A stretch of DNA of 51,294 bases from Candidatus Omnitrophica bacterium UBA6253 (GCA_002441245.1 DJVP01000011.1:1-51294); one strand, 5' to 3'. Shown: positions 7,566 to 50,859, counted from the stretch's first letter. The notes: generated from the sequence alone by a model not told the origin. Translations and numbers: made by a program.

Positions 7566-10500
7566 ACCCAGATACAGTTTATAACTCCTGCGGCAGGGGA
7601 TGTTTATTCGGTTGGAGATAGCAGGAGCATTAAATGGCAGGTAACCGGTGGCAATATCTCTAGAACCAGCAGTCATTGGTTAGTGCAGTTTTCCACAGAT
7701 GCTAATTTTACTTCGCCTATAACTGTACATGAAGGATTGGCGAGCGTTGATGGAGATAACAACCTGTATTTCGTATTATCTGTGGATTCAAGTATGCTTT
7801 CAGAGGTTGTTTATTTGCGGGTATCCTGTATTGATAATTTATATACTGATGTTGCAGCAACCTCCGGGCAATTTAGCATAAGGCCTGTTGCTGCCTTTGT
7901 GGGTTTTGTTGCCCCGGCTTCAGCTGTTAAGTGGGCTATCGGCAGCAGTAATACAATAGAATGGTCCACGCAGGGGGCGATCAGTAATAATTTCAAGATT
8001 GAATATTTTGCCGGGAATACATGGACAACGATTTATGAAGAAGGTGTCAGCGGTTCAGCATCAGTTACTAAGGCAGCAGGCGCGCATTGGTACGAAGATG
8101 ATTGGTCTTATTCCTGGACTGTCCCGCAGGCGGCTAACCTGCCTGATTCCGGAGCAGTGATCAGGGTCACCAATTCAGATAACAGTATAGTTACCGGAGT
8201 CAGCGAGGAATTTGAAATAGCCACCGCTTATATTAAAATAACCAGCCCGACCGAGGGGATTACTTGGGTAAGGACTGAAACTAATAATATTACCTGGGAG
8301 GGCCAGGGTGAATCAGGTACGCGCTTTAGCATACAATATTCGGATACTGCCAATGCAATTACTACTGAGCTTTATAATGGTTCAATAGAAAGGACACTCT
8401 CTGAGGGGAAGTGGCTATATAGTTATCCATGGGTATTAAGCGCCGAACTTGAGCCGACTGATACAGCGGCAATAATAATAACTAATCTTGATGATAGCGG
8501 TATTGCCGATACGTCTGCCATATTTAGTGTTAATGCCAGTGGAAAGTTGGAGATAACTGCTCCTGTGGCAGGGGATAAATGGGTTATTGGCGCCAAATAC
8601 ACAATAAAATGGACTTCTGATGGACAGTCTCTTAGCTCCTCATCCATAAGGATTACTTATACGGCAGATGGTGTTGCAGAAACCCTGATTACTAATTCTA
8701 CTTCTAATACCGGAAGCAAAGATTTTACTTGTCCTTCCACCGCCTTAAGCAATGTAAAGGTGCATTTGTATCAAATAAACGGCGACGTAACGGCTGAATC
8801 AGGAGTTTTTAGTTTTGTGGCAGTTCCTTCGCTTCAGTTTGTATCTCCGGTTGCCAATGATAACTGGGTTGCCTCTTTCACTAAAGAAATAAAATGGAGC
8901 GGTGTCGGGGGCGGGCTAACGCAAATGCTGGTGATTAAATATTCAACTGACGGCGGTTCAACGTATCCTAATACAATCTTTAACTACACCACGGATTCTT
9001 ATGAGGAGAAGATTTCGTCTGTAGTTAGCGGTACCGTTACTAATTATACATTGGCCTGGCCGGTACCAATTAATTACAGTAATAACGTGAAGATAAAAAT
9101 CGAAGACATGGGGATAATGCGCCTGGTAAGCGGCTCTTATGTGCCTTTAAGCGTAGTAAGCGGAAAGTTCTCTATAACCGCGCCGTTTGCTACCATTGCC
9201 CAGCCAGCAGGTGGAGAAGGCTGGATAGCTGGTACGGAGCACGATATTATCTGGTCGGAGACAGGGTCTTTAGGTAAAGATATAAAGATAAGTTATTCGG
9301 TTGACGGCGGCTTGACCTATCCTTATGTAATCTTCCAGAATTCCACAGGAGACAGCGCTATATACGACAATTATATAATTCCTGTAAATAGTTCGCTGAG
9401 CTATAAATGGACAGTCCCCAATACTATTTCTACGCAATGCCGTATTAAGATAGAGGGCCTGACAAACAGCGGAAGTGGAACCTCTCTTGCTAATTTCTCG
9501 ATCAAGCTGCCTATTATAACAATAACCTCTCCTGTATCGACAGATTTATGGTCAATTTACGATACCGGCAAGCTGATCAGCTGGACTAATACCGGTAATG
9601 TCAGTGAACATTTAAAAATAGAGTATTTTAAGGATGCATCTACTTCTAAGGTAATATTGGCAGATGTCAACGGCACGGCGACATCTTATAGCTGGGATAT
9701 AACTGAGGATTATAAGAGCTACGTTTCGGATAGCGGCTGGATAAAGATCACTGACTTAAATGCCGAAACAACATTTGGCCAGCCCCTTACTGCGGTATCG
9801 GAGGCGTTTGTGCTATCCTTGCCTGGTTTTGAGATTAATGTACCGGCCAGCCCCTTAATTACCGGCAGTTCCTATAATATAACTTGGCAAGGCATTGGTA
9901 TGTATTCTGAATGCAGCACAGATCCGTCTAATACCATACGTTTAGAGTATGGCGTGGGAGATAATCCTACATGGATTACAATTTCAGCTTCTACCCAAAA
10001 TGACGGCTCATATGAAAATTGGGTAGTTCCTGATAAGCATTCCAGCGACGTTAAATTCAGGATTACCAATAATACATGGTCATTTATTACGGGGATTTCG
10101 GAACCATTCAAGATCATGGGTTCACTCTCCATTACCAGCCCCGCTGCCGGGACAAAACTTTTCGTAGGACAAGAGCAGATGATGGAGTGGAGCACTAATG
10201 GTACGATTAACAAGGTAAATTTGTATTATTCAAAGAATAACGGCTCTACCTGGAATGCCATAGCTACAGATACTACTAATAACGGGTATTATATGTGGAC
10301 GATTCCCGACGCAGTATTAGTTGACCGTTCTCCTAACAGCAGTGTTTATTTTAAGGTAGAGGATGCTACGGATTCGGCGGTGTATATCAATAGGCAATAT
10401 ACAATAAGTTATTATAAAGTTACCTGGAATGTTATTGATGCCGACGGCCTGGTAGGCGATTTGGATGGTTTAAGTGTCAATACATTAGATGTAACTAATA

Positions 10501-12867: not shown

Positions 12868-13653
12868 ATGCTGATAAGAAATAAAATATGGGTTAATTGG
12901 GCATTATTGAGCAGTTTTTTATTTATCCCTTTGCAAGCTGATGCTGCAACCGATACCTGGAATAATATAGAAAAGAGTAAGCACTTTATCATTTATTATC
13001 AGGATGCATCTGCTGAATATATTAACCGGCTGGTTAGAGAGGCGGAACATTATTATAAGAATATTACTCAATACTTAGGGTTTGTGAGATTTGATTTTTG
13101 GATTTGGGATAATCGTTGTAAAATATTTCTTTATCCGGACGCCGAGACGTATTTAGGGACTACTGGAGTTGTTTATTGGTCAAGGGGGCATGTCCAGATT
13201 AAAACGAAAGAAATCAGCACTTATATTTGGCAGGAAATGTTCTTTGATACAATTCTTCCGCATGAGATTGGCCATATAATATTCAGGGAGTTTGTCGGTT
13301 ATAACAAGGCATTGCCTCTTTGGCTTGATGAAGGGGTGGCATGTATGCAGGAATATGAAAGTAAGGACCGTCTGGCAACCGCTAAATGCCTGGTAAGCTT
13401 GAAATTATACACGCATTTAACTGATCTGGCTACGATTAAAGATTCAAGCGTAATTATACCGTTTATTTTTTACAACGAGTCAGCCAGCATAGTGGATTTT
13501 CTCTTAAGGAGGTTCGGCAGGAATAAATTTGTAGATTTCTGCCGTTCTTTGCGGGATGAGCCTAATTGGGAACAATCCCTTAAAGGCGTATACAGGATAA
13601 AAGGCATGGAAGAATTAGAAAAACTTTGGGTTGCGGATTTAACTGAAAATTAA
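12868..13653 (+). CDS. Secreted gluzincin-type zinc metallopeptidase (peptidase MA-like)
   Basis: The N-terminal signal-like segment WALLSSFLFIPLQADA is present. HEIGH lies at nt 13261-13275, and a Glu (WLDEG, nt 13330-13332) follows exactly 18 residues after the second His, giving HEXXH-X18-E. Confidence 0.7.
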   Translation: MLIRNKIWVNWALLSSFLFIPLQADAATDTWNNIEKSKHFIIYYQDASAEYINRLVREAEHYYKNITQYLGFVRFDFWIWDNRCKIFLYPDAETYLGTTGVVYWSRGHVQIKTKEISTYIWQEMFFDTILPHEIGHIIFREFVGYNKALPLWLDEGVACMQEYESKDRLATAKCLVSLKLYTHLTDLATIKDSSVIIPFIFYNESASIVDFLLRRFGRNKFVDFCRSLRDEPNWEQSLKGVYRIKGMEELEKLWVADLTEN

Positions 13654-13717: not shown

Positions 13718-14629
13718 ATGAAGAATGATGTAAAAGCCCGGGAATTCAATATTTTAGTCGTTGAGGATGATGAAAGGACATTTAAAACCATAAAAGACGG
13801 CTTGATAAATCCGGAATATAAACTGCATCGGGTGACTACGGGACAGGAGGCGATCAACCTGGCCAAAGAAGGCTATTTTGTCGCTATTATTACCGAGATG
13901 CAGATCGGGGATATGAATGGGATTGAGTTAATCCGCCGGCTTAAGAAAATAGATCAGCGGATTAATATAATCGGTCTGACCGTTTATGCCTTTGTTAATC
14001 TAGCGGTGGAGGCAATGAAGGAAGGTGTCTATTCTTATCTGATGAAACCGATCAATACGGAAGAGTTGAATTTAGTTTTGAGGCGGGCGATAGAGAATAC
14101 CTTTCTTTTGATACAGGCAGGGCAAAGGAAATATTATCAGGATATCGCTACTATGGATGGCTTGACCGGTGTTTATAACCATCGCCATTTTCACGAAATG
14201 CTGGATTGGAATATTTCGCATTTGAACCGTTCCCCGCAAGCCTTCTCGCTTTTTATTACCGATATTGATGATTTTAAGAAATATAATGATACTCATGGCC
14301 ATGTAGAGGGGGATAAGATATTACATAATTTCGCTCAGCTATTAGTCAGTTCTACCAGGGATAATGATATGGTGTTTAGATATGGAGGGGAGGAGTTCGC
14401 TGTAATTTTGTCGCAGACAGACCAGTTTAGCGCCCAGAAGGCCGGGGAGAGGCTGCTGGTAATAGTAAGGAGCCGGATGCCTATTACCATGAGCGTAGGT
14501 TTAGCCAGTTTTCCATTGAATGCCCAGATTAAAAGCGAGTTAGTCATACGCGCTGACAAAGCGCTTTACCGGGCTAAAAAAACAGGTAAAAACAGGTTAT
14601 GCACATTTGACGAGAAAATAGACATATGA
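13718..14629 (+). CDS. Response-regulator receiver fused to a GGDEF diguanylate cyclase (GGEEF active site, RxxD I-site); receiver has Glu at the phospho-acceptor position
   Basis: An AGGAGG Shine-Dalgarno precedes the ATG. The receiver shows ILVVEDDE, GLTVYA and LMKP. The GGDEF domain shows YNHRHF, DIDDFKKYNDTHGH, RDND followed by 5 aa and then GGEEF (nt 14384-14398). Residue 60 (nt 13895-13897) is Glu where CheY has Asp57. Confidence 0.85.
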   Translation: MKNDVKAREFNILVVEDDERTFKTIKDGLINPEYKLHRVTTGQEAINLAKEGYFVAIITEMQIGDMNGIELIRRLKKIDQRINIIGLTVYAFVNLAVEAMKEGVYSYLMKPINTEELNLVLRRAIENTFLLIQAGQRKYYQDIATMDGLTGVYNHRHFHEMLDWNISHLNRSPQAFSLFITDIDDFKKYNDTHGHVEGDKILHNFAQLLVSSTRDNDMVFRYGGEEFAVILSQTDQFSAQKAGERLLVIVRSRMPITMSVGLASFPLNAQIKSELVIRADKALYRAKKTGKNRLCTFDEKIDI

Positions 14630-14838
14630 AAAACTTAACGATTATCCTGATAATGTTGATCAGTACCTTAGGCCCGTCGGCGGTAATCGCGGCGGTAGGT
14701 TTTTCCGGGGTTAAGGCCATTGGCAGGAATCCTTCAGCAGCACCCAAGATTTTAATTTCCATGGTACTGGCATTTATTTTTGCTGAAGCCATAGCCGTAA
14801 TCGGGCTTTTGGTCGTATATAATTTATTCGGACAGTAA
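14626..14838 (+). CDS. atpE: F-type ATPase subunit c (proteolipid)
   Basis: This 70-aa two-helix hairpin has a GRNPS polar loop (R-N/Q-P type) and a membrane-embedded carboxylate in FAEAIAVIGLLV. Its ATG overlaps the GGDEF stop codon (ATGA). Confidence 0.8.
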   Translation: MKNLTIILIMLISTLGPSAVIAAVGFSGVKAIGRNPSAAPKILISMVLAFIFAEAIAVIGLLVVYNLFGQ

Positions 14839-14931: not shown

Positions 14932-15690
14932 ATGCTGGTATGGCAGATAATTCTTATTCAAATAGCTACTTTTACTTTAATTGTTTTATTTTTACGCTGG
15001 TTGCTTTATAGCCACATCAGCCGCGCCCTGGAGAGGTTGCAGAAGTTAAATCAACAAAACCTGGAGAAAGAAAAGGTGCTCAAGGAGGAATTTGAGCGGG
15101 CAAGAAAACAGGCGGAGATCGAGATCCAACAGGGTAAGGTTGAGGCTGAGAGCATAAAAGAACAGGCAAAAGAGGATGGAGAAAAGACAAGAAGGAATTT
15201 GCTTGAGGCTTCTAAAGAAGAAGCAAAACGAATTGTTAGTGAAGGGATCAGGGACAGCCAGAGAAAATATAATGATTTACTTCTGGAGATGCAGGATAAA
15301 TCGGTATACCTGGCAGTTGATATTATAAAATATATTTTTACAGAAAGGATCCGTCAGGTCATACATATCCAGGTTATTGATGAATTGATAGATGATGTAG
15401 CCGGGCTGGATAAAGAAAAGATACGGGCCCAGGGGGATAAGGCAGAGATTGTTTGCGCCTACCCCTTAGGGGCGGATCAGAAACAGCGATTACAGCAGGC
15501 CTTATCTAATAAGTTAGAGCGCAATATTGTATTAGAGGAGACGGTTGACCCGGAGGTCGTCGGAGGCCTGATTATACGCTTAAGCGGATTTGTGGTTATT
15601 GACGGCAGTATCAAAAATAAATTTAAAAGAATAGTGCCGATAATGAAAGATAAAGCCAGGGCTGGTGTTGAACAGGCGGAGAAAGGTTAA
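14932..15690 (+). CDS. F-type ATPase stator subunit: b fused to the C-terminal domain of delta (OSCP)
   Basis: The N-terminal TM segment IILIQIATFTLIVLFLRWLL is followed by a charged helix typical of subunit b. The C-terminus (AEIVCAYPLGADQKQRLQQALSNKLERNIVLEETVDPEVVGGLIIRLSGFVVIDGSIKNKFKRI) matches the delta/OSCP C-terminal consensus. A GAGGAG Shine-Dalgarno is present. Confidence 0.7.
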   Translation: MLVWQIILIQIATFTLIVLFLRWLLYSHISRALERLQKLNQQNLEKEKVLKEEFERARKQAEIEIQQGKVEAESIKEQAKEDGEKTRRNLLEASKEEAKRIVSEGIRDSQRKYNDLLLEMQDKSVYLAVDIIKYIFTERIRQVIHIQVIDELIDDVAGLDKEKIRAQGDKAEIVCAYPLGADQKQRLQQALSNKLERNIVLEETVDPEVVGGLIIRLSGFVVIDGSIKNKFKRIVPIMKDKARAGVEQAEKG

Positions 15691-17157
15691 ATGCAGGAGA
15701 TAAATTTAAAGCCGTTAGAGATAAAGGACGTAGGTACGGTTAAAGAGATTAAAGGTGGCGTAATTAAAATAAGCGGGCTGGCTTCCTGTGTAAATGGCCA
15801 GTTGATTGAGCTTGCGCCTGATTTAATGGGTATGGTAATCGGTTTTACCAAGAGAGATGTCTTGGTTTTAGTTTTAGGCGATGAAAATAAGGTGCATATT
15901 GGCGATACTGTTTATGGGGAAGAGGGTGTTTTTGAAATTCCCGTAGGGAGTAATTTTATCGGCAGGGTAGTAAATACCTTTGGCCAGCCATTGGACGGCA
16001 AGGGTAAGATTGAGGGGGTGGATACTTATCCAATATTCAGAAATGCTCCCGGGGTCTTGGATAGGACGCCAATTGTAGAATCATTCCTTACCGGTACTAA
16101 AATTATCGATACTTGTATTCCCTTGGGTAAAGGCCAGAGAGAACTTATCCTGGGGGACAGGGTTACTGGAAAAACCACGCTGGTAATTGATGCGATTATA
16201 AATCAGAAGGGCAAGGATGTAATCTGTATATATTGCTGGGTAGGGGGTAGCCAGTCTGCCTTTTTGAAGATTATGGAACAGCTTAGGTTAAGCGGAGCTA
16301 TGGATTGGACTATTGTTGTGGCGGCCTCGGCATCTGCTTCTCCCGCAGAACAATATCTTGTCCCCTATGCTGCCTGTGCATTGGGAGAGTATTTTATGGA
16401 TCATGGCAGGGATGTTTTTTGCGCTTTTGATAATTTAACCCGGCACGCCTGGATCTACCGTGAGATATCCCTGCTTTTAGAGAGAAGCCCGGGCAGGGAA
16501 GCCTATCCCGGGGATATTTTTTATATCCATTCCCAATTAATGGAGCGAGCTGGCAAGTTAAATGAAGAAAAAGGAAGCGGCTCAATGACCTTTTTGCCTA
16601 TTGTAGAAACACAGGAAGGAGATATTACCGGCCTTGTTCAGTCTAATCTTGTTTCTATAACTGACGGCCAAATATATTTAAGCGCATCCCTTTTTAATGA
16701 AGGTTTCAGGCCGGCTATTGATTTAGGGCTTTCTGTCTCGCGAATTGGAAGTAAGGTCCAATGTGAATCCATAAAAAAAGTAAGCCGTTCCTTAAAGAGG
16801 GAATTTGCCCAGTATAAGGAATTAGCCGCTCTTACTACTATTAGAACTAAACTCTCTGCTGATATAGAACTTAGATTGAAGAGGGGGCAGGCATTAAGGG
16901 ATTTTTTCATTCAAGATAAATCAAGGCCTCTTTCCGTAGAAGAAACAGTGGTGCTTTTTTATGCTTTTATCAAAGAGATCCCTGAAATATTAGAAGAATC
17001 TAAAAGAGAAAATTTTAAACAAGAGATATTTGGTTATCTGCTTAAGAATTACCCGCAATTAATTGAAGAGCTTGCTATACAGAAGCTTTTAACCGGCGGG
17101 GTAGAAAGAGGCCTGGATAAGGCATTTGAGGATTTTTTTGAAGTTTCTAACAGCTAA
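15691..17157 (+). CDS. atpA: F1 ATPase alpha subunit
   Basis: The P-loop reads GDRVTGKTT. The motifs DNLTRHAWIYREISLLLERSPGREAYPGDIFYIHSQLMERA and GLSVSRIG are present. The start codon directly abuts the upstream stop (TAAATG). Confidence 0.9.
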   Translation: MQEINLKPLEIKDVGTVKEIKGGVIKISGLASCVNGQLIELAPDLMGMVIGFTKRDVLVLVLGDENKVHIGDTVYGEEGVFEIPVGSNFIGRVVNTFGQPLDGKGKIEGVDTYPIFRNAPGVLDRTPIVESFLTGTKIIDTCIPLGKGQRELILGDRVTGKTTLVIDAIINQKGKDVICIYCWVGGSQSAFLKIMEQLRLSGAMDWTIVVAASASASPAEQYLVPYAACALGEYFMDHGRDVFCAFDNLTRHAWIYREISLLLERSPGREAYPGDIFYIHSQLMERAGKLNEEKGSGSMTFLPIVETQEGDITGLVQSNLVSITDGQIYLSASLFNEGFRPAIDLGLSVSRIGSKVQCESIKKVSRSLKREFAQYKELAALTTIRTKLSADIELRLKRGQALRDFFIQDKSRPLSVEETVVLFYAFIKEIPEILEESKRENFKQEIFGYLLKNYPQLIEELAIQKLLTGGVERGLDKAFEDFFEVSNS

Positions 17158-17172
17158 AATCTAAGGAGCAGC

Positions 17173-18069
17173 ATGATTCCATTAGTTATATTACGTAAAG
17201 ATTTAGCGTTTAATAAGGTGATGGAGAGTATTATCGAGGTTTTGAAGGGGGTGGCTGCGACCGAGTATTTCCACCTTCAAAGCAAAAGAAAGAGTTTCGA
17301 TGAGTTTGAGGGTTATCTAAGGGATTTATTTGAACGGGTAGATATCAGCGGTTTCCAGCACCCTTTTTTAGGGGGGCCGGCTTCTTCAAGTAATATTGTT
17401 ATGATAACCTCGGATTCCGGTTTTCTCGGTGAACTTAATATGTCAGTAGTGAATTATGGTTTGGCCCAGTATAGAAGCGATGACCTGCTTACGGTAGTCG
17501 GTAAAGAAGGAGTCAGGTATATAGGAGAGCAAGGAATAAAATATACCAGTTTTGCCGGTATTGATGATGATATTTCTTATAGTACAGTGATAAAATTAAG
17601 AGACCATATAGTAAATGAGTTTTTTAACAAGAAATTAAGCAGTACGGTTATTGTTTACCCGCATTTTGTTTCTTTTGCGGTACAAAAGATTGAACAGTTC
17701 CAATTGTTCCCCTGCAGGTTTTTATTTCCACAGGAGTCAGGTTCCGGAAAAACAGGCCTTGGCCAAGCCGGGTTTTTGCAAATAGACCCCAGCGAGAAGG
17801 TGATATTGGACTCGCCCTTGAAGTCAATTGTAGAATATTTAGTCAAGGTATGGGTCGGGCAATTAATCCATCTTATCTTTTGGGAGAGTAAACTTTCTGA
17901 ATGGGCGGCTCGTGTAATGCATTTAGAGAGAAGTTCTAACGAGATCAGGGATCAGCAGAAGAAAATGAGGCTGCAATATTTTCGCACCATGCATGAAAGA
18001 AGCGATAAGAGTACTAGGGAGATTTTTGTCAGTAGGATGGCTTTGAGAAAGACCGGGGCCATAGCTTAA
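17173..18069 (+). CDS. atpG: F1 ATPase gamma subunit (divergent)
   Basis: The call rests on size (298 aa), position between alpha and beta, an N-terminal helix ([17 protein letters not shown]) and a C-terminal helical segment ([19 protein letters not shown]) resembling the gamma termini. Confidence 0.65.
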
Positions 18070-18083
18070 AACAGGAGTTTTTA

Positions 18084-19493
18084 ATGCAGGAAGGTAAAGT
18101 TGTTTCAGTGCAGGGACCGATTGTAGATGTAGAGTTCCCTCCCGAGGTGTCGTTTCCGGCAGTCTATGATATTATCGAGACAGAGACCTTTGACGGGCAG
18201 CGGATAGTATTGGAGGTAGTCGAGTATTTAAGCAAGACGGAGACGGATAAGACGAACACTATGCGTTGTATCTCCCTTACCCCCAATTTTGGCTTGCGTA
18301 GAAATGCCAAGGCCTTTGCTGTCGGTTCAACGATTAGTGTTCCCGTAGGGGAAGTAACCTGTTCCCGGATATTAAATGTGTTGGGTGAGCCGGTAGATAA
18401 AAAAGGCGCTATCAAGGTTGGCCCGGAGTCCATCAGGCCTATCCATAAAAAACATCAAATAGCTACAGTTGATACAGGGGAAGGTAAGGAGAAAAAGTTT
18501 GAGGTTATGCAGACAGGGATCAAGATGTTCGATCTTTTATTTCCTCTGATCAGAGGCTCAAGGAATGGTATTTTGGGAGGAGCTGCTTGCGGTAAGAGCG
18601 TAATTATCCTTGAGCTTATGCATAATATTATTAAGATGCAAAAAGGATATTGTGTATTTACCGGGGCTGGAGAACGGACCAGGGAAGGAAACGAGTTATA
18701 TTATGAGCTAGAGAAGCAGGAAATATTAAATAGGTCATCTTTGGTTTTTGGGCAGATGAATGAATCTCCTGGAGCCAGGTTTGAGGTAGTCCATACCGGT
18801 TTGACATTGGCAGAGTCTTTTGTTGAAGCCGGTGATGATGTTTTATTGTTTGTTGATAATGTATTCAGGTTTGCTCAGGCAGGCAGCGAGTTATCTACGC
18901 TCCTGGGGAGAATCCCTTCTGAAACCGGTTATCAACCCACCCTGCCTACAGAGATGGCTGAATTCCAGGAGAGGATCCGCTCTATAGGGCAGGCTTCAAT
19001 TACAGCGATGGAAGCAGTCTATGTGCCTTCTGACGACTTGACTGATCCGGCCGTTGTCTGCATATTCAGTTATTTAGATTCCATAGTTATCTTGTCACGC
19101 CGGTATGTTCAGTTAGGACTTTTTCCCGCTATTGACGCCTTGACATCCTCCTGTGCTTTTCTTGACCCTATGATTATTGGAAACAGGCATTTCAAAATTT
19201 CCCGGGATGTCTTAAGGATCCTTAACAGGTATGAGGAGCTTAGGCGTATTGTTGCTATTGTAGGGGTAGAGGAGCTTTCCGGAGGAGACCGTATCATATT
19301 TGAAAGGGCGCAAAAACTGCAGAATTTTCTTACTCAGCCATTTTTTACCGCAGAAGCTTATACAGGCAAAAAAGGGGAATATGTCCCCTTAGAGGCGACT
19401 TTAGAGGGCTGTGAAAGGATAGTTGCTGGCCAGGTGGATAAAGTTCCTAATGAGAAGTTCTATATGATTGGGGCATTGTTGGCTAATCCTTAA
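18084..19493 (+). CDS. atpD: F1 ATPase beta subunit (variant P-loop and degenerate DELSEED)
   Basis: The P-loop reads GGAACGKSV. The motifs [43 protein letters not shown] and [13 protein letters not shown] are present. The DELSEED position reads EELSGGD (nt 19269-19289). Confidence 0.9.
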
Positions 19494-19569
19494 TTTAATA
19501 TTTAAAATGATTTTGGCTGGGAAAGCATAAGTAATAAATTCATACAAATAAACAAGGGAGACCAAGGGA

Positions 19570-21294
19570 ATGTTAATTAAAATAGGGCAGATGCTGATTA
19601 ATAAGAAATTGATTACGCCTGAGCAGTTAGAGGCAGCTCTTGCCGAACAAGGTAAAACCGGTGAGCTTTTAGGGGTTATCCTGGTTAAAAAGGGTTTTTT
19701 GAGCCAGGAGGATTTCTTAAAAGTACTTTCTGAGCAGTTTAATGTGCCTTTTATAAAGTTAAAGGAAACCGCTATTGATCCTTTAGCGATAAAGAAAGTA
19801 CCCGCCAAGTTCGCCTGGTATTATAAAGTTATGCCGGTTAAATTTGTAGATAATAAATTGCTTATTGCTTCTTCTGACCCCTTGCGTTCTCTGGATGATC
19901 TGAGAATATTCTTAGGTTATGATTTGAAGCCGGCCCTGGCTTCGGAATCAGAAATAATGGAAATGATCAAGGAGAATTACGGGGTAGGCGCTGAGACTGT
20001 AGAGGGGATCATTGCTAAAGCGCCCAAAGATACCAAGGGGCAGGATGCGCCAAAAGAAACAGGCAAGATTGAGGATATAGAGAAATTAGCCGAAGATGCC
20101 TCAGTAGTCAAGTTGGTAAACCAGATAATTCTGGAGGCTTATCAGAAGAGGGCAACCGATATCCATATTGAGCCATTCCGGGGTAAGATGAATATAAGAT
20201 ACCGTATTGACGGCGTTCTTTACAACGCAAATGTTCCGGCTGATATCGAGCGGTTTTTCCTGGCGATTATTTCGCGTATAAAGATAATGTCCAGGTTGAA
20301 TATTGTAGAACGCCGACTTCCTCAGGATGGCCGCGCTGTGATAAAAATTGGGCAGGAGGAACTGGATTTAAGAATTTCGATTATCCCCACGCGTTACGGT
20401 GAGGGTATGGTTATAAGGATCCTTCCCATGAGTATGCTTTTTAGCCTGGAGCGGCTTGGCTTGGTCCCTGAGGATTTAGAGATTTTGGCAAAATTAATCA
20501 AGAAGCCCCACGGCATAATCCTGGTTACCGGGCCGACGGGAAGCGGCAAGAGCACTACGTTGTATGGGTGTTTGAATGATATAAAAAGCAGCAAGAATAA
20601 GATAATTACTATTGAAGACCCTATAGAATATGAACTGGAGGGTATAATTCAAATCCAGGTCATTCCGGAAATAGGGTTTACTTTTGCTCAAGGCTTAAGA
20701 AGTATATTAAGGCATGATCCGGATATTATGATGGTAGGAGAGATCAGGGATTTTGAGACCGCGGAGCTGGCAATAAGGAGTGCGTTAACCGGGCATTTGG
20801 TTTTTTCCACCCTGCACACAAATGACGCTGCCGGGGCGGTTGCCCGCCTGTTAAATATAGGTATTGAGCCATACCTGGTAGCTTCTTCCGTAGAGGCATT
20901 CATCGCCCAGAGGTTGGTGCGCTTAATCTGCCCGGAATGCAAAAAGATAGATACGGCGATACCGGATAATGTCAGGTCGTTAATAAGCCAGGATATAGCC
21001 AAGAGCAAAACAGATTTAAAACATTTAAAACCTGAAGAGATTAAATTTTACAAGGGGCAGGGCTGTAAGGAATGCAATTTTACCGGTTATAAAGGCAGGA
21101 CTGCAATCCATGAAATACTGGTAGTAGATAAGCTGATAAGAGAGTTGATGTTGAGGAAGGCATCAACCGATGAATTAAGGGATAAGGCGGTCAGTCAGGG
21201 AATGAAGACTTTGCGTTTATGCGGGTGGAAGAAGGTTATCGACGGCCTGACTACTCCCGAAGAGATATTGAGGGTAACCCAGGCAGAGGAGTAA
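19570..21294 (+). CDS. gspE: Type II secretion / type IV pilus assembly ATPase (GspE/PilB family) with an MshEN-like N-terminal domain
   Basis: Walker A is GPTGSGKST. The motifs IMMVGEIRD and FSTLHTND are present. The tetracysteine cluster reads CPECKK...CKECNFTGYKGR. The N-terminus is LITPEQLEAALAEQ...LLGVILVKKGFLSQEDFLKVLSEQ. Confidence 0.9.
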   Translation: MLIKIGQMLINKKLITPEQLEAALAEQGKTGELLGVILVKKGFLSQEDFLKVLSEQFNVPFIKLKETAIDPLAIKKVPAKFAWYYKVMPVKFVDNKLLIASSDPLRSLDDLRIFLGYDLKPALASESEIMEMIKENYGVGAETVEGIIAKAPKDTKGQDAPKETGKIEDIEKLAEDASVVKLVNQIILEAYQKRATDIHIEPFRGKMNIRYRIDGVLYNANVPADIERFFLAIISRIKIMSRLNIVERRLPQDGRAVIKIGQEELDLRISIIPTRYGEGMVIRILPMSMLFSLERLGLVPEDLEILAKLIKKPHGIILVTGPTGSGKSTTLYGCLNDIKSSKNKIITIEDPIEYELEGIIQIQVIPEIGFTFAQGLRSILRHDPDIMMVGEIRDFETAELAIRSALTGHLVFSTLHTNDAAGAVARLLNIGIEPYLVASSVEAFIAQRLVRLICPECKKIDTAIPDNVRSLISQDIAKSKTDLKHLKPEEIKFYKGQGCKECNFTGYKGRTAIHEILVVDKLIRELMLRKASTDELRDKAVSQGMKTLRLCGWKKVIDGLTTPEEILRVTQAEE

Positions 21295-21301
21295 TAAAGG
21301 T

Positions 21302-21541
21302 ATGTTTAAGGTATCGGTGCTGGATATAAAGACAGCTTCGACTATATTCCAGGAGTTAGTTTCTTCTGTTATACTGCCTGGTGACGAAGGCGAGCTTTCT
21401 ATATTAGATTTTCATCAACCGATCATCTCTTGTTTAAAAGAGGGTATGATTAAAATAGATAATATCCCGCCTGTGGTTATCAAGAGTGGCATTGCAAGCA
21501 TGCAGGATAATGAACTGGTAGTATTGGTGGAGAAAAAATAA
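21302..21541 (+). CDS. atpC: F1 ATPase epsilon-like protein: N-terminal beta-sandwich domain only (79 aa)
   Basis: VSVLDIKTASTIFQELVSSVILPGDEGELSILDFHQPIISCLKEGMIKI aligns by eye with the epsilon consensus (..G.EGE[LF]GIL.GH.P.......G...I). No C-terminal helical hairpin is present. The gene starts 7 nt after the gspE stop and ends 1 nt before the gspF start. Confidence 0.65.
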   Translation: MFKVSVLDIKTASTIFQELVSSVILPGDEGELSILDFHQPIISCLKEGMIKIDNIPPVVIKSGIASMQDNELVVLVEKK

Positions 21542-21542
21542 G

Positions 21543-22790
21543 ATGCCAATATTTGTTTATCAAGCAAAAAAAGGTCCTCAGGAAGTTATCGAAGGGACTG
21601 TCGATGCCGCAACCAAAGAAGCGGCTGTGAATAAGATAGAGAATATGGGTTATGTGCCTATCCGGGTTAATCTTGAAAAAGAGCCTAATGTTGGTGCTGC
21701 CGGAAAACTGCCAGGAGACAAAAATGCCGCTGTTGGGCATTTGGGGCTGTTTGAAAGGGTTGGTTCCCGTGACTTAAATGTATTTACTGAACAACTGGCT
21801 ACCTTGGTTAAGTCTAAGGTACCGCTTTTTGAAGCTATAAATATTCTTTCTTCTCAGACGGATAATCCCAGGCTTAAAATGATAATAACTTCTATATCCG
21901 GTGAATTAAAAGACGGTAAAACCTTGTCGGAGGCATTAAGTAGATACCCCCAGGTTTTTCCTTTGCTATATGTTAATATGGTCCGTTCAGGAGAAACAGG
22001 CGGTGTTTTAGATGAGACCTTGACCCGGCTGGCTAAATTCCGTGAAGAACAAGAAGAGGTAAGGGCAAATATCAGTTCAGCCCTGGCATATCCGATCTTT
22101 ATAACAGTAGTAGGTTTGATTACCGTTATTATCCTGCTTACCTTTGGTATTCCGCGTTTAGTTTCTATGTTCAGCGAAACCAAGCAAGCCCTGCCTTTGC
22201 CTACCAGGATCTTGATTTCAATAAGTAGCGGAATCAGGAATTATTGGTATTTAGGGATTACATTTATAGCCCTGGTAATCTTTATCCTGCAACAAAAACA
22301 GGTAGCTAAGAAAAAAAAGGCTATTCTTGAAAAGATTATATTAAGGTTGCCCTTAATCGGAAATTTTAGCAAAAAGGCTATGCTGGGGGAGTTTACCCGG
22401 ACTTTTGCTTTACTCCTGGCTAATGGGGTTCCGGTACTTGAGGCCCTTCAGATAACAGTGCCGACAATAAATAATGAAGTATTTAAACTGGAGCTGGAAA
22501 AGGTACATAGCGACCTTATTGTGGGTACTCCTCTTTCTCAGAGCATGAGAAAATCCAGCTGGTTCCCGCCATTTCTGACCAATATGATAGCGGTAGGCGA
22601 AAGAGGAGGGAATCTTCAAGATGTATTATTGGAGGTGGCAGTTTTTTATGAGCGCGAAGTAAGAAAAATAAATAAAATAATGACCTCTTTACTTGAACCA
22701 GCGATAATCTTAGTTATGGGTTTAGTAGTAGGGTTTATTGTCATAGCGATGCTCCTGCCTATTTTTGAGATAAATATGGCGGTGCAATAA
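21543..22790 (+). CDS. gspF: T2SS/T4P inner-membrane platform protein (GspF/PilC family)
   Basis: This is a 415-aa protein with a duplicated GspF domain. The motifs LATLVKSKVPLFEAINIL, VNMVRSGETGGVLDETL and NMIAVGERGGNLQDVL are present, along with three TM segments. Confidence 0.9.
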   Translation: MPIFVYQAKKGPQEVIEGTVDAATKEAAVNKIENMGYVPIRVNLEKEPNVGAAGKLPGDKNAAVGHLGLFERVGSRDLNVFTEQLATLVKSKVPLFEAINILSSQTDNPRLKMIITSISGELKDGKTLSEALSRYPQVFPLLYVNMVRSGETGGVLDETLTRLAKFREEQEEVRANISSALAYPIFITVVGLITVIILLTFGIPRLVSMFSETKQALPLPTRILISISSGIRNYWYLGITFIALVIFILQQKQVAKKKKAILEKIILRLPLIGNFSKKAMLGEFTRTFALLLANGVPVLEALQITVPTINNEVFKLELEKVHSDLIVGTPLSQSMRKSSWFPPFLTNMIAVGERGGNLQDVLLEVAVFYEREVRKINKIMTSLLEPAIILVMGLVVGFIVIAMLLPIFEINMAVQ

Positions 22791-22805: not shown

Positions 22806-23222
22806 ATGAAGGCAAAAAGTGGCTTTACGCTTATAGAGTTAATGTTGGTAGTTATAATCCTCGGTGTTTTAGCGGCGATGGTAATGCCAAGGCTGTCCGG
22901 ACGCTCAGAGCAGGCAAAGTCCTCAGTGGCTAAGACAGATATCAGCGCTAATATAGCAACTGCCCTGGATCTTTATGAGCTGGATAATGGCAGATACCCG
23001 ACTACAGAGCAGGGGCTTAGCGCATTAGTGACAAAACCGGGGGATCTTTCCGATGGGTCTAATTGGAATGGCCCCTATATTAAAAAGGAACCTAACGATC
23101 CATGGGATAAGGCGTATCAGTATAAATACCCTTCAACGCATGAAGGCCAAGACTATGACTTGTATTCCCTGGGGGCAGACGGCATAGAAAGTGAAGATGA
23201 TATCGGCAACTGGGAAAAGTAA
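22806..23222 (+). CDS. gspG: Major pseudopilin GspG
   Basis: The prepilin leader and cleavage motif reads MKAKSG/FTLIELMLVVIILGVLAAMV. The GspG-type body includes LDLYELDNGRYPTTEQGL, DPWDKAYQY and LYSLGADGIESEDDIGNW. Confidence 0.85.
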   Translation: MKAKSGFTLIELMLVVIILGVLAAMVMPRLSGRSEQAKSSVAKTDISANIATALDLYELDNGRYPTTEQGLSALVTKPGDLSDGSNWNGPYIKKEPNDPWDKAYQYKYPSTHEGQDYDLYSLGADGIESEDDIGNWEK

Positions 23223-23595
23223 AGGTTTTACGTTAATTGAAATAATGATCAGTATATCCATCCTGTCTGTGGGGTTGATTTTTGTGCTTCAAGGGCTCAC
23301 CCAGTGCCTTAGTATTTTGCGTATTTCCCAGAATAATCTGGAAGCAAGTTTGTTGGCTGAGGAGAAGATGGCAGAAGTAGAGATAGCCGCTAAGCAGGAT
23401 AAGACCACATTCTCTAAAGATGCAAGCGGAGAAGAGCAATCCGGTAATATAGAATTTAAATGGCAAATACGATTGACTCCTGACAGTGGATATGAAGATC
23501 TTAATAAGGTCATGGATACTGTTTATTGGAAAGAGGGCAGAAGGAGCGGCGTCAGCGTATTTAATACTTATTTGTTAATCCCGCATGATAAATAG
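23191..23595 (+). CDS. Minor pseudopilin (GspI-like)
   Basis: The leader reads ...GKSKG/FTLIEIMISISILSVGLIF. At 134 aa the size matches GspI. The start is GTG 23191 or ATG 23197, and the gene overlaps the end of gspG. Confidence 0.6.
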   Translation: MKMISATGKSKGFTLIEIMISISILSVGLIFVLQGLTQCLSILRISQNNLEASLLAEEKMAEVEIAAKQDKTTFSKDASGEEQSGNIEFKWQIRLTPDSGYEDLNKVMDTVYWKEGRRSGVSVFNTYLLIPHDK

Positions 23596-24205
23596 AAAGA
23601 ATAATAAAAAGAAGTTCATCATGGGGTTTACCCTGGTTGAACTTATTATCAGCGGGGCAATAATCTTTTTGATTTCTGTAACTGTGTATTCCGTATTTTC
23701 CAGTGGTATTAATGTCTGGAAAAAAGCTAATCAGGCCAAGAGCAAGGGGTATGGTTTAAGACTGATTGCGGATAAGTTGAGTATGGAGCTAAGGAATACT
23801 TTTAAGTTTTCCAGCATTCCGTTTGAGGGCACCGAAGATTCTATTTCTTTTGCTGCCCTTGTCGATAACGGGGTAAGCAGGACCAGCTATTTTATTAATG
23901 AGGATAATGTTTTTTGCCGCAGGCTTCAGAGCTATGCGGATGTTTTTAAGAAGGGCGAGTCCGGTAATTATGATTTACTGTTTTTCGGGGCCAAGAAGTT
24001 AAAGTTTAGCTATTGTTACCTTGATAACGCAACAGGTGATTATGAATGGAAGGATGAGTGGATAAAAGAGGAGCAGGATACTATCCCCCAGGCAGTAAAA
24101 ATAGAGTTGACTTTTGAAGGAAAGCCTGAAGAAGAATTAAAATTTACCAAAACGGTCTTCATCCCTATTGGTACGGGAGAGCAACGGATAGAACTTATAC
24201 AGTAG
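23585..24205 (+). CDS. Minor pseudopilin (GspJ/H-like)
   Basis: A basic leader, MINRKNNKKKFIMG/FTLVELIISGAIIFLISV, precedes a 206-aa protein. The gene overlaps the preceding gene by 11 nt. Confidence 0.5.
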   Translation: MINRKNNKKKFIMGFTLVELIISGAIIFLISVTVYSVFSSGINVWKKANQAKSKGYGLRLIADKLSMELRNTFKFSSIPFEGTEDSISFAALVDNGVSRTSYFINEDNVFCRRLQSYADVFKKGESGNYDLLFFGAKKLKFSYCYLDNATGDYEWKDEWIKEEQDTIPQAVKIELTFEGKPEEELKFTKTVFIPIGTGEQRIELIQ

Positions 24206-24215
24206 GGGTAAGTTT

Positions 24216-25238
24216 ATGGGAAAAAAGGGCAATCCTGCGCGGGCGAGCATACTGATTATTACTCTTTGGGTCTTAGGTTTTTTGACTGTTTTTGTGGTTA
24301 ACCTTGGATTCATGGTCAGGTCGCAATTGCAATTTGCTGATCACCTGCAGGATAGGATGAAAATGTATTATCTGGCCCGGGCAGGCATAGAAAGGGTGGT
24401 TGCTGAATTAAGTAATGATGAGACCGAAAGCTATGATTCCTTTAATGAGTCATGGGCGAATAATGAGGAGTTTTTCAAGGATGCAGTTTTTGGGGGAGGA
24501 TTTATAACTCTTAGCTACCATCCCGGGGACCAAGAAGGCGATGAAGGAGAGATGACATTATATGGGGCAATGGATGAAAGCAGTAAAATAGATATAAATA
24601 ATGCGCCCCAGGATATATTAATAACATTACTGGAGCGTATTGGCAAGGTAGAGGCAGAAGAGGCAATAGATATTTCCGGGGCAATCCTTGATTGGAGAGA
24701 TAAAGATGTAGCTGTTTCGACAGGAGGGGCCGAAGACGGATATTACCAGGGGTTATCTTCTCCCTATGAATGCAAAGATGGAAAATTTCAAATACCGGAA
24801 GAATTATTACTGGTTAAGGGCATGACCCTTGAGATCTTTTCCGAGATCAAGGATGTAATTACTGTTTATGATACAGAAAAGGTTAATATTAATACCGCAA
24901 GTTTTGACTGTTTATACGCTTTAGGCCTAAACAGAAGCCTTTGTGAACAGATAATTAAATTCCGCCAGGGTAGTGATGGATTGAGCGGCACCGAGGATGA
25001 TTTTATTTTTAAAACCCCCTCGGCATTAATGAGCATAGGCTCCTTGTTTACCGAGGAAGCCACACAAATAAATACTTTGATCTCCAGGAATATACTTACA
25101 GTAAGATCGGATATTTTCAGGATTAATTCTCTGGGGCAGCTAAAAAATGCAAGGGGGACGCGTTCCAGGGAGATTGTTTGTGTGTTAAAGCGCCAAAAAA
25201 ACAAGGGTGCGAAAATATTATATTGGCATGAAAATTAA
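24216..25238 (+). CDS. gspK: Minor pseudopilin GspK-like
   Basis: The N-terminal hydrophobic helix ASILIITLWVLGFLTVFV has no F/E prepilin pair. The motifs ESSKIDINNAP and EKVNINTAS (GspK-type KININ.A) are present, and the size is 340 aa. Confidence 0.7.
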   Translation: MGKKGNPARASILIITLWVLGFLTVFVVNLGFMVRSQLQFADHLQDRMKMYYLARAGIERVVAELSNDETESYDSFNESWANNEEFFKDAVFGGGFITLSYHPGDQEGDEGEMTLYGAMDESSKIDINNAPQDILITLLERIGKVEAEEAIDISGAILDWRDKDVAVSTGGAEDGYYQGLSSPYECKDGKFQIPEELLLVKGMTLEIFSEIKDVITVYDTEKVNINTASFDCLYALGLNRSLCEQIIKFRQGSDGLSGTEDDFIFKTPSALMSIGSLFTEEATQINTLISRNILTVRSDIFRINSLGQLKNARGTRSREIVCVLKRQKNKGAKILYWHEN

Positions 25239-26730
25239 TTTAACGAAATTATTCCAAAAGCAAGAGAAGGTAACAACTGTTGTCCAGATAGACAATAACT
25301 GGTTGAAATTAATCCAGGTAAAAGAGCTCAAGCGGGAGAAGAAGGTCTCCATGATCAAGGTTGCGGAGATTAGTTCTTTGTCCGACGAAGATATCACGCT
25401 TAAGATTTCTAATCTGGCTTCGGAGTTAAAGATAAATTCGCATTATCTCATTCTTTCTATACCGCGGCATCTAACAACCACCAGGAATCTTGATTTGCCT
25501 TCCGCAAACCCGCTTGAGATAAAAGATATGATTGAGCTTCAGATTGGCAAACAAACACCCTATGCCAGCGACGAGGTGATTAAAGATTATCAGATTTTAG
25601 GCAGCAATGCAGATGGGTACAGCAGGGTGCTTTTGGTTATTGTGCACCGGGATATTGTGGGAAGGTATTTTAAAATACTGGAATCAGCGGGACTTAAGGT
25701 GCAAAAGGTGAGTTTTAGCTCTGAGGGATTATTAAATTGGAGGAGCCTGGTTTACCGGGAAAAGGTCTCAGGCGAGAAAGTGCATATATTGATTGATGTT
25801 GATTATGATACAAGTGACTTTGAGGTTGTGCTGAATGATAAACTGGTTTTTGGCAGGAGTATCTCCTTGGGTTTCTCCCAGCTTCCCGGGCAAATAGAAC
25901 AGTGGCAGAAGAAATTTGTTGAAGAGATAAACCATTCAATTTATGCTTACCAGAATGAAATAATGGGCAAGGAGATCAGCAGGATTATAATAAGCCGTCC
26001 GAGGTTGGTCGGCGATAGCCTGGATAAAAATGTTTTAGAAAGAGAATTTGGTTTACCCGTAGAGATCATAGACCAATTCAAGGATATTCCCCTGACCGAG
26101 GAAGGTACGAATTCTTATAATAATTTGGTTAGGACTGATTTATCGTTTGCCGGATTAATCGGCTTGGGTTTGCCCTCTGGCGAACATAAGATTGACCTTG
26201 TTCCCCAGGAGCATCTGATAGGCAAGGCGGTAAAAGAAAAAGGCAAAGACCTATACATTATGGGCATACTATTGGTGTTTATCTTGGTTGCTGTTTCTGG
26301 TGTTTTCCTGGGGAGGATGTATAATAAAGAACGGTACTTGAGTCAATTAAAACAGCGGCTCGATCAGATCCAGGACAAGACCAAGGAATTAAATGGCATG
26401 ATCCGGGGGATAGAAACAATAAAAGACAGGGTTTATACAAGAGGTACATCGCTTAATCTTTTTTATGAGGTGCACCGGGCGATCTCTCCTGAAATTCATT
26501 TAATTTCGATAAGCTTTGACGGGAAAGAAAACCTTATCTTGCGGGGAGAGTCAAATGAGATGTCCGAGGTTTTTAGCTTTGTTAATAAATTAGAAGAATC
26601 AGCGTATTTTCAGAATGTTAAGTCGAAATACGCCACTAAACGCAAGGTGGGGGATAAAGAAATTACGGATTTTGAAATTTCCTGCCCCTTGCAGGATAAA
26701 TACAAGGTTACGGATAAACACAAATTATAA
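25228..26730 (+). CDS. PilM-PilN fusion (GspL-like): actin-like cytoplasmic domain, TM segment and periplasmic domain
   Basis: An N-terminal domain of roughly 340 aa has PilM-like organisation. It is followed by the TM segment LYIMGILLVFILVAVSGVFLG and a PilN-like coiled-coil/ferredoxin-like tail. ATG 25228 is preferred; the alternative GTG 25207 lies deeper in the gspK overlap. Confidence 0.6.
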   Translation: MKINLTKLFQKQEKVTTVVQIDNNWLKLIQVKELKREKKVSMIKVAEISSLSDEDITLKISNLASELKINSHYLILSIPRHLTTTRNLDLPSANPLEIKDMIELQIGKQTPYASDEVIKDYQILGSNADGYSRVLLVIVHRDIVGRYFKILESAGLKVQKVSFSSEGLLNWRSLVYREKVSGEKVHILIDVDYDTSDFEVVLNDKLVFGRSISLGFSQLPGQIEQWQKKFVEEINHSIYAYQNEIMGKEISRIIISRPRLVGDSLDKNVLEREFGLPVEIIDQFKDIPLTEEGTNSYNNLVRTDLSFAGLIGLGLPSGEHKIDLVPQEHLIGKAVKEKGKDLYIMGILLVFILVAVSGVFLGRMYNKERYLSQLKQRLDQIQDKTKELNGMIRGIETIKDRVYTRGTSLNLFYEVHRAISPEIHLISISFDGKENLILRGESNEMSEVFSFVNKLEESAYFQNVKSKYATKRKVGDKEITDFEISCPLQDKYKVTDKHKL

Positions 26731-26736
26731 ATAAGA

Positions 26737-27270
26737 ATGGAATTCCTGTCCAGGCTATCTAAAAAAGAAAGGCGTTTGTTTTATATCACAGTGGCGGTGG
26801 TGGCCATTGTTTTTCTTGAGAGGGTGGTTTTTAAGCCGGTTATGAATAAGCTGGAAAATTTTAACGGCAAGATATCTTTAGAAGAAAAGAAGCTGGAAAA
26901 GTCAATGCATATTCTGGGGCAGGAATCAGCCATAACCAGCGAATATGAGAAATTTGCTCAAAGCATAAAACAAGAGCAATCCGATGAAGAGACGCTAGCC
27001 ATATTGCTTAGCAGTATTGAGAAGATGGCAAACAGCGTTTCTGTTTTTATCTTGGATATGAAGCCTGGCACAGTAGAGAAAGCCGAGTTTTACAAGAAAT
27101 ATACCGTTAAAATTGAAGCCGAGGCAAAGATCAGTAACTTGACAGATTTTATTTATCAGTTGGAGAATTCTCCGAAATTGCTCAGGGTATCGGATTTTCG
27201 CCTGACCCCCCAGAAAAAAGAGACTGTTCTTAAAATTAGCATGACAGTTACTGAGGTTTTGATTAATTGA
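26737..27270 (+). CDS. PilO/GspM-like bitopic assembly protein
   Basis: This 177-aa protein has a single N-terminal TM segment (LFYITVAVVAIVFL) and a coiled-coil segment. The call rests mainly on its position after PilM-N; sequence evidence is weak. Confidence 0.45.
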   Translation: MEFLSRLSKKERRLFYITVAVVAIVFLERVVFKPVMNKLENFNGKISLEEKKLEKSMHILGQESAITSEYEKFAQSIKQEQSDEETLAILLSSIEKMANSVSVFILDMKPGTVEKAEFYKKYTVKIEAEAKISNLTDFIYQLENSPKLLRVSDFRLTPQKKETVLKISMTVTEVLIN

Positions 27271-48677: not shown

Positions 48678-48716
48678 GTGTTTAAATAAAGTTAACTGTA
48701 TATTAGACTTTAATCA

Positions 48717-48744
48717 TTGCAACTCTAGGTTATTTTGATAGAAT
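48717..48744 (+). promoter_or_regulatory. TTGCAA-N16-TAGAAT promoter-like element upstream of the second CheY-like regulator
   Basis: The hexamers and spacing match the element at 46188, including the shared TAGAATAAA. The element lies about 70 nt upstream of ATG 48815, with a GGAAGG Shine-Dalgarno. Confidence 0.4.
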
Positions 48745-48814
48745 AAAGTAAGTTTTTAAGGGTCAATACGCGGTAGCATGAATAGCGTAATACCATATTA
48801 GTTCAGGGAAGGCT

Positions 48815-49186: not shown

Positions 49187-49200
49187 ACGAAAGTTAATCT

Positions 49201-50856: not shown

Positions 50857-50859
50857 TTT

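Follow-up and report, generated by a model that had tools for sequence, protein, structure and literature searches.

A hairpin-less F1 epsilon gene between gspE and gspF in a probable merged F-type ATPase and endopilus gene array of Omnitrophota

The DNA analyzed here (the window) is a 51,294-nucleotide (nt) stretch from Candidatus Omnitrophica bacterium UBA6253 (GCA_002441245.1 DJVP01000011.1:1-51294), in which a gene for a 79-amino acid (aa) protein resembling the epsilon subunit of F1 ATPase stands between the genes of the secretion ATPase GspE and the platform protein GspF. Our analysis indicates that this gene is most probably atpC, encoding an epsilon subunit cut down to its beta-sandwich, and that it belongs to a divergent accessory F-type ATPase (subunits c, b/delta, alpha, gamma, beta, and epsilon, with subunit a not in the cluster) whose genes are merged with an endopilus array resembling that of a type II secretion system (T2SS). 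The location of epsilon between gspE and gspF would then be the inherited order of one of two sister groups of loci and not evidence for membership in the GspE/GspF motor. We assign a probability of about 0.7 to this explanation as a whole. The type of locus is already known (PMC10066038), with only the neighborhood of the two gene sets on record in the literature so far; its detailed anatomy and the question of the missing subunit a are new. A second F-type ATPase in a pilus/secretion operon beside giant surface-protein genes may be key to the attachment of ultra-small Omnitrophota to other cells or to their attack on them, and the anatomy described below frames the question of whether such loci encode an ion pump dedicated to a secretion platform or an F-type rotor without a channel.

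The identity of the 79-aa protein (positions 21302 to 21541, + strand; all positions are those of the window unless a locus is named) was assessed by profile and fold comparisons. The protein matched the delta/epsilon N-terminal domain family PF02823 (ATP-synt_DE_N) over profile positions 9 to 78 of 80, with E = 5.7e-13 and a score of 49.1 bits against a cut-off of 27; the peptide LPGDEGELSILDFHQPIISCLKEGMIKI is found in the translation of the open reading frame (ORF). A profile built from 30 homologues retrieved F1 epsilon chains of known structure (2rq6, E = 2e-10; E. coli, E = 3e-7), the match being confined to the N-terminal domain. An AlphaFold model of the protein, which had a mean predicted local distance difference test (pLDDT) score of 63 with poor values in the first 17 residues and was used for fold assignment only, returned in Foldseek 50 top matches that were all either bacterial F1 epsilon or mitochondrial delta. 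Family members share the motif LPGxEGE...FHQP, which pairs with E. coli SEGELGIYPGHAP, the segment that contains Glu31 and His38. In E. coli epsilon, cross-linking places both residues near the polar loop of c and near gamma. When aligned with E. coli epsilon, all family members stop where the beta-sandwich ends (E. coli residue ~86), and the C-terminal helical hairpin is missing from both classes of loci described below. The original prediction, made from the sequence of the window alone, had matched the product to the N-terminal beta-sandwich of F1 epsilon without the hairpin that mediates ATP sensing and inhibition, and these comparisons bear it out on both counts.

The protein scored 54.7 with the full-length epsilon equivalog model TIGR01216, under the cut-off of 67.25, a narrow miss that is expected from its half length. 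Since NCBIfam contains short epsilon models, PRK13449 (88 positions) and PRK13442 (102 positions), hairpin-less epsilons seem to exist elsewhere, possibly in some anaerobes; a literature search for naturally hairpin-less epsilons gave nothing usable. The epsilon gene is under purifying selection, with a dN/dS ratio of ~0.08 among close relatives (0.09 for gamma and 0.09 for GspF). GspF aligns to GspF profiles from its own residue 1 to 4 onward, and therefore no epsilon C terminus is concealed in GspF. A pseudogene or truncated remnant was ruled out by the dN/dS ratio of 0.08, by the length of ~79 aa kept in both clades, and by the lack of an epsilon C terminus in GspF.

All assigned genes of the window lie on the + strand, and the atp and gsp parts form a single unbroken array that runs from a diguanylate cyclase gene and the c gene through pilO, ending at position 27270. 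Around epsilon, the beta gene (atpD) is followed by a 76-nt spacer (19494 to 19569), gspE (19570 to 21294, + strand), a 7-nt gap, the epsilon gene, a 1-nt gap, and gspF (21543 to 22790, + strand); ORF coordinates thus agree with the order and spacing that had been described. The atpD-gspE spacer measures 11 to 71 nt in most relatives. The paralogous genes gspE2 (49201 to 50856, + strand) and gspF2 (from 50860, + strand, cut by the end of the window), which serve as a comparison locus, are separated by 3 nt with no insert, also as predicted. There are no epsilon or other atp genes at the gspE2-gspF2 locus, where a longer contig has prepilin-like genes downstream and again no atp genes. GspE and GspE2 share 42% identity.

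A protein search yielded 78 homologues of the 79-aa protein with lengths of 54 to 101 aa, none of them fused to another domain; all homologues that carry an organism name are named Omnitrophota/Omnitrophica. Gene contexts were collected in three sets: the contexts of three divergent matches, 27 species-representative genomes with epsilon as the seed, and 80 metagenome contigs with the c subunit as the seed, the last set being blind to epsilon and GspE. Loci with a phylum-level name were all Omnitrophota/Omnitrophica, and some rows were labelled "uncultured Planctomycetales/Planctomycetia."

Two gene orders were found among these loci. In class I, which includes the window, the order is PepMA (a Peptidase_MA_2 protein), RR-GGDEF (a response-regulator diguanylate cyclase), c, b/delta, alpha, gamma, beta, GspE, epsilon, GspF, the pseudopilins G, H, J, and K, PilMN, and PilO. 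This class comprises 36 distinct epsilon sequences in the gspE-epsilon-gspF context on Omnitrophota contigs; the triplet, for which a survey of genomes had been proposed, is not unique to the window. In class II, the order is (PepMA/RR-GGDEF), epsilon, c, b/delta, alpha, gamma, beta, GspE, GspF, PilMN, PilO, and pseudopilins. Here, 24 distinct epsilon sequences of ~75 to 85 aa stand directly before c and pass PF02823 at E = 2e-11 to 3e-15 (44 to 56 bits), while gspE and gspF abut. A mis-assembly or one-off rearrangement was ruled out, since the arrangement recurs in many samples, on dozens of contigs that are independent of one another.

In a neighbor-joining tree of alpha and beta rooted with E. 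coli, classes I and II were reciprocally monophyletic, with bootstrap values of 99 and 100 of 100. Therefore, each gene order arose once and was then kept. The classes are sister clades, and either position of epsilon may be the ancestral one. Epsilon invariably co-occurs with c, the b/delta fusion, alpha, gamma, and beta: beta is upstream of epsilon in 32 of the 32 class I loci with enough flanking sequence, and in class II epsilon adjoins c in all loci. Among the loci seeded with c, GspE directly follows beta in 27 of 27. Because epsilon always accompanies F1 genes, and because of its place in class II, we consider it a subunit of the F-type ATPase and not an accessory of GspE/GspF.

The two parts of the array are also linked by spacing and by common divergence. 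Median gaps in class I are 7 nt between GspE and epsilon and 1 nt between epsilon and GspF (32 gaps with both genes visible). A terminator scan revealed no convincing terminator-like hairpin on the + strand in the atpD-gspE spacer or in the other intergenic gaps of the array, which, together with the tight gaps on both sides of epsilon, supports an operon. All cluster genes co-diverge, with pairwise-distance correlations of 0.88 to 0.98. Of the two possibilities that the original prediction had put forward, interleaving of the atp and gsp operons is thus upheld by the same-strand array and the co-divergence. In a mirror-tree analysis, the partial correlation of epsilon was −0.15 with GspE and 0.18 with GspF, no better than with c or b/delta.

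Departures from the two orders were seen in several loci. In a class II variant (L113 and L115), PilMN and PilO separate GspE from GspF; therefore, GspE-GspF adjacency is not obligatory either. In one sublineage (L005 and L029, positions 3425 to 6851 of the locus; L051; L055), genes for a PAS protein and for a large Cache/HAMP/PAS histidine kinase, 3.4 to 3.6 kilobases (kb) in total, lie between gamma and beta, and the remaining array is undisturbed. A bAvd/23S_rRNA_IVP-type gene, perhaps accessory to a diversity-generating retroelement, is located between b/delta and alpha in L003 (positions 3624 to 3983) and in L019. PepMA stands between c and b/delta in some loci. Insertions are tolerated at several points of the array. 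In L075 and L076, alpha is the last gene of the cluster, and an unrelated ORF with eight transmembrane (TM) segments comes next; these are either rearranged or degenerate copies or chimeric contigs.

The state of the remaining F-type subunits was examined in the window and in the family alignments. Subunit c (14626 to 14838, + strand, 70 aa; PF00137) is the most constrained gene of the cluster, with a dN/dS ratio of 0.02, 62 to 100% identity across the alignment, an invariant FAE motif, and an invariant carboxylate, Glu54. The b/delta fusion (14932 to 15690, + strand) consists of a membrane helix, a b coiled coil (PF00430, residues 7 to 133), and the C-terminal domain of delta only (PF00213, residues 169 to 234, covering profile positions 103 to 168 of 172); by BLASTP, it matches E. 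coli delta residues 93 to 177 only, and the delta N-domain is missing. The alpha (15691 to 17157, + strand) and beta (18084 to 19493, + strand) proteins exceed the cut-offs of the canonical models TIGR00962 atpA (536.9 versus 484.45) and TIGR01039 (541.6 versus 462.85), and their best matches in the PDB are ordinary F1 enzymes, solved canonical F1 subunits scoring 430 to 478 bits. Gamma (17173 to 18069, + strand; PF00231, E = 4.3e-28) is divergent and scores 72.7 with TIGR01146, under the cut-off of 194; all three of gamma, c, and epsilon are under equivalog cut-offs, whereas alpha and beta are over them. The family alignment of beta contains GGAxxGKS (Walker A), GERxREG with the catalytic Glu, and the Walker B Asp, and the P-loop and Arg finger (SVSRIG) of alpha are conserved across the family. 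Judging from these motifs, F1 looks catalytically intact. Alpha lacks ~14 N-terminal residues that form the delta-binding helix: it starts at about E. coli residue 15 to 24, and its residue 10 aligns with E. coli residue 24. With the delta N-domain and the alpha helix missing, the grip of the stator on F1 must therefore differ from that of canonical enzymes.

Subunit a was sought with PF00119 on all ORFs of the window and with phmmer using the C terminus of E. coli subunit a. Among the relatives, the unlabelled ORFs of 115 loci were screened for hydrophobicity, and eight candidates were then examined with Pfam. Within 10 kb in the window and in ~70 related loci, these screens gave no PF00119 match and no confirmed multi-TM candidate for subunit a, and phmmer was negative too. 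The slot before c is occupied by RR-GGDEF or by epsilon.

The pilus part of the array contains GspE/PilB, GspF/PilC, the pseudopilins G, H/I-like, J, and K, PilMN, and PilO. GspE carries a type of N terminus known from MshE, which binds cyclic di-GMP (c-di-GMP): the segment encoded by positions 19570 to 19740 passes the binding motif model NF053729 with a score of 66.4 against a cut-off of 38, and PF05157 and PF00437 (E = 6.5e-129) are matched as well. The protein encoded upstream of c, RR-GGDEF (13718 to 14629, + strand), combines a REC domain (PF00072, E = 9e-20) with a GGDEF domain (PF00990, E = 1.5e-39) bearing a GGEEF motif, and its gene overlaps the c gene by 4 nt, an overlap kept in class I loci. 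A predicted c-di-GMP producer (RR-GGDEF) and a predicted receptor (the GspE N terminus) thus appear to share one array.

These observations suggest how the system may work. Epsilon and gamma would form the foot of the rotor on the c-ring, and loss of the hairpin would lift auto-inhibition, so that the enzyme would run in the direction of ATP hydrolysis as an ATP-consuming motor. The array would be co-transcribed, with c-di-GMP gating pilus assembly. The ATPase would serve the pilus/secretion apparatus, most likely as a dedicated ATP-driven ion pump that energizes the membrane platform; in this version, a subunit a encoded elsewhere is needed. PulF/GspF is reported to form an ion channel (PMC10790770).

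Several points weigh against the accessory ATPase explanation. No gene for subunit a was found within 10 kb in the window or in ~70 related loci, so the ion-pump version depends on a putative orphan atpB outside the cluster. A stator that lacks the delta N-domain and the alpha N-terminal helix may not be canonical. The 1-nt spacing between epsilon and gspF, strictly kept in class I, could equally reflect a functional link with GspF. Finally, the mirror-tree partial correlations point to no single partner of epsilon.

The loci described here correspond to a type, with a "symbiotic" F-type ATPase, that was reported by Seymour et al. 2023 (Nat Microbiol, PMC10066038). These authors found genes of a non-respiratory F-type ATPase adjoining type 4a pilus clusters in many Omnitrophota; all classes of the phylum are represented, and Velamenicoccia account for 56 of 111 species examined in that class, with both gene sets within 10 kb in 57 of 66 contigs; the role proposed was attachment to and motility on host cells. 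In the window, alpha and beta of an Omnitrophota genome likewise directly adjoin pilus genes within 10 kb, and the window is almost certainly one of the loci of Seymour et al. In that paper, the two sets are handled as neighbors and only alpha and beta are classified. A text search for epsilon gave no matches, and neither its truncation nor its position is mentioned. Nor does that paper describe the occurrence of pilB/gspE within the atp block, the existence of two gene orders, the retention of c and b/delta, the lack of a, or the c-di-GMP elements. The original prediction had stated that no description of such an arrangement was known, which is incorrect as regards the locus type.

The F-type genes could also encode an ordinary chemiosmotic ATP synthase with subunit a located elsewhere, their adjacency to the pilus genes being a neutral rearrangement with no functional link. 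Alpha and beta above the canonical cut-offs, their PDB matches, the intact catalytic motifs, and the kept carboxylate of c all fit such an enzyme. As in the canonical F1Fo operon (atpIBEFHAGDC), the array encodes c, b, part of delta, alpha, gamma, beta, and epsilon in a near-canonical order. Unlike that operon, it has no a and no atpI, the delta C-domain is fused to b, gspE lies between beta and epsilon, alpha has no N-terminal helix, and epsilon has no hairpin. The divergent type may, moreover, be the sole F-type enzyme in many genomes, since in a 2026 preprint (10.64898/2026.06.07.730766) on 176 complete Omnitrophota genomes, alpha and beta are reported for 125 of them and gamma, at a strict threshold, for only 30. 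The low gamma count of that survey is probably explained by the gamma score under the equivalog cut-off. We nevertheless consider an ordinary synthase unlikely. The linkage to pilus genes is invariant over two deep clades, with GspE after beta at 27 of 27 loci; epsilon lies within the pilus part in 36 lineages; the GGDEF gene overlaps c; and the cluster lacks the epsilon hairpin, the N-domain of delta, the N-helix of alpha, and a gene for subunit a. In addition, the phylum has a distinct "respiratory" clade of alpha (PMC10066038), and for Candidatus Susulua stagnicola, which carries the cluster (L025), use of a V-type ATP synthase has been reported (PMC8542988, Table 2). The V-type enzyme of this carrier supports the accessory status of the F-type ATPase.

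Another alternative is that the F1 sector and c-ring work without a channel and are mechanically integrated with the pilus platform, with b/delta anchored on GspF or on PilMNO, in which case ATP-driven rotation would help pseudopilus assembly or the export of the giant protein. Stated as one hybrid nanomachine, a rotor made of alpha3-beta3, gamma, hairpin-less epsilon, and the c-ring, without a, would be docked mechanically or energetically to the T2SS-like platform; rotary hydrolysis and the GspE hexamer would together drive pseudopilus assembly or giant-protein display, and the placement of epsilon would reflect co-assembly of the two motors. We give a small chance to rotation without a channel and a similarly slim one to the single nanomachine. 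In favor of this possibility, a is the sole missing F-type subunit and is missing at every locus, the slot before c holds RR-GGDEF or epsilon, and the stator is remodelled. There is also precedent in the Mycoplasma F1-like X0 ATPases, in which F1 modules drive surface systems without Fo (PMC3369863, PMC12994834). Against it, the invariant carboxylate of c and the strongest constraint on this subunit are what an ion-translocating ring predicts, any contact between the two machines is hypothetical, and the search for a covered individual loci.

The Mycoplasma type 2 and type 3 F1-like X0 ATPases, which include the gliding motor of M. mobile (Beven et al. 2012, PMC3369863; Berlureau et al. 2026, PMC12994834), are the best functional analogy for an accessory ATPase merged with an endopilus array. 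In both cases, an additional F1 module is genetically tied to a cell-surface system, its presumed role is hydrolysis and not synthesis of ATP, and the Mycoplasma module, which its surface system needs, sits alongside a housekeeping enzyme. The Mycoplasma type 3 alpha is reported to be without the N-terminal helix, as is the alpha described here. However, the Mycoplasma clusters comprise seven genes, with no Fo c or b and with novel membrane proteins of 12 TM and 2 to 3 TM segments, whereas the Omnitrophota array retains c and b/delta and no 12-TM or X0-like protein was found in it. In the work of Seymour et al. (PMC10066038), alpha from loci of this type falls outside the respiratory clade and is assigned to Mycoplasma types 2/3. 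By the NCBIfam cut-offs, this assignment is not supported: the scores were 401 against a cut-off of 600 for MMOB1660 and 378 against 850 for MMOB1670, both models of the gliding type, and 320 against 520 for MSC_0619 and 365 against 570 for MSC_0618, both models of type 3. Beta gave 305 bits with M. mobile G1 beta and ~450 bits with canonical beta. The published Mycoplasma-type classification contrasts with the canonical scores of alpha and beta.

The N-ATPases (atpDCQRBEFAG) resemble the Omnitrophota cluster in having no separate delta gene and in the architecture of a long b subunit (TIGR03321, positions 5 to 239 of 246). They differ in gene order and in atpQ, atpR, and a, all of which the Omnitrophota cluster lacks, and the scores with the N-ATPase models were well under the cut-offs (495 against 750 for alpha, 477 against 752 for beta, and 62 against 225 for b). 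Protein export or filament assembly is served by homologues of F1 alpha/beta, gamma, and b/delta in the flagellar/injectisome export ATPase complex FliH-FliI-FliJ, a precedent that is far more diverged, is built on a homohexamer, and has no c-ring or epsilon. With the FliI/SctN models, alpha and beta obtained only 160 to 210 bits.

The second possibility of the original prediction, in which the GspE/GspF motor has co-opted an epsilon-fold protein as an accessory or adaptor, is very improbable: the tight and conserved epsilon-gspF gap (median of 1 nt in 32 class I loci), the lost nucleotide-sensing hairpin, and the gspE2-gspF2 paralogues without epsilon, which make the gene specific to this machine, would suit such a role, but class II has epsilon before c with gspE and gspF adjacent, epsilon was never seen without F1 genes (beta being present in all 32 class I loci with enough upstream sequence), no fusion to GspE or GspF occurs among the 78 homologues, the equivalents of Glu31 and His38 are kept, and the partial correlations with GspE and GspF are no better than those with c or b/delta.

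The pilus genes downstream of epsilon were assigned as follows. GspF/PilC matches PF00482 (E = 5e-69) and scores 368.8 with TIGR02120, under the cut-off of 424; GspE, with 572.8 against an equivalog cut-off of 630.25, is also below threshold, whereas the major pseudopilin GspG (22806 to 23222, + strand; PF08334) exceeds its cut-off with 162 against 88.85 (TIGR01710). The stretch from 23191 to 25238 (+ strand) encodes three minor pseudopilins, one with an N-methyl motif, one GspJ-like, and one GspK-like (PF07963, PF11612, and PF21687). They are followed by a PilM-PilN fusion (25207 to 26730, + strand; PF11104 and PF05137) and by PilO (26737 to 27270, + strand; PF04350), and PilMN and PilO stand where GspL and GspM would be. 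PilM-PilN is one 507-aa protein, and the fusion is kept in relatives. The cluster resembles T2SS and type IVa pilus systems in having GspE/PilB, GspF/PilC, a GspG above the equivalog cut-off, J- and K-like pseudopilins, PilM, PilN, and PilO, and differs from them in GspE and GspF under the equivalog cut-offs and in six F-type ATPase genes within the array. No secretin, prepilin peptidase, GspC/L/M, or PilT gene is present in the cluster.

Upstream of the array, a 4186-aa giant surface-type protein is encoded at 108 to 12668 (+ strand). This ORF has a single C-terminal membrane helix, and its only Pfam match is to weak DUF2808 repeats; a giant ORF is also located upstream of the cluster in related loci and is a conserved neighbor. 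PepMA (12868 to 13653, + strand; PF13485, E = 3.6e-8) has a signal peptide and is found in most related loci at variable positions.

The gspE2 and gspF2 genes belong to a second pilus-type cluster (46221 to 51294 of the window, also seen in L034). This cluster encodes a histidine kinase and a response regulator of its own, and it includes several prepilin-like genes. The GspE2 protein barely passes the c-di-GMP motif model, with a score of 38.8 against the cut-off of 38. No tRNA and no Rfam family was detected in the window. GC skew is positive in nearly all 1-kb bins of positions 1 to 51294.

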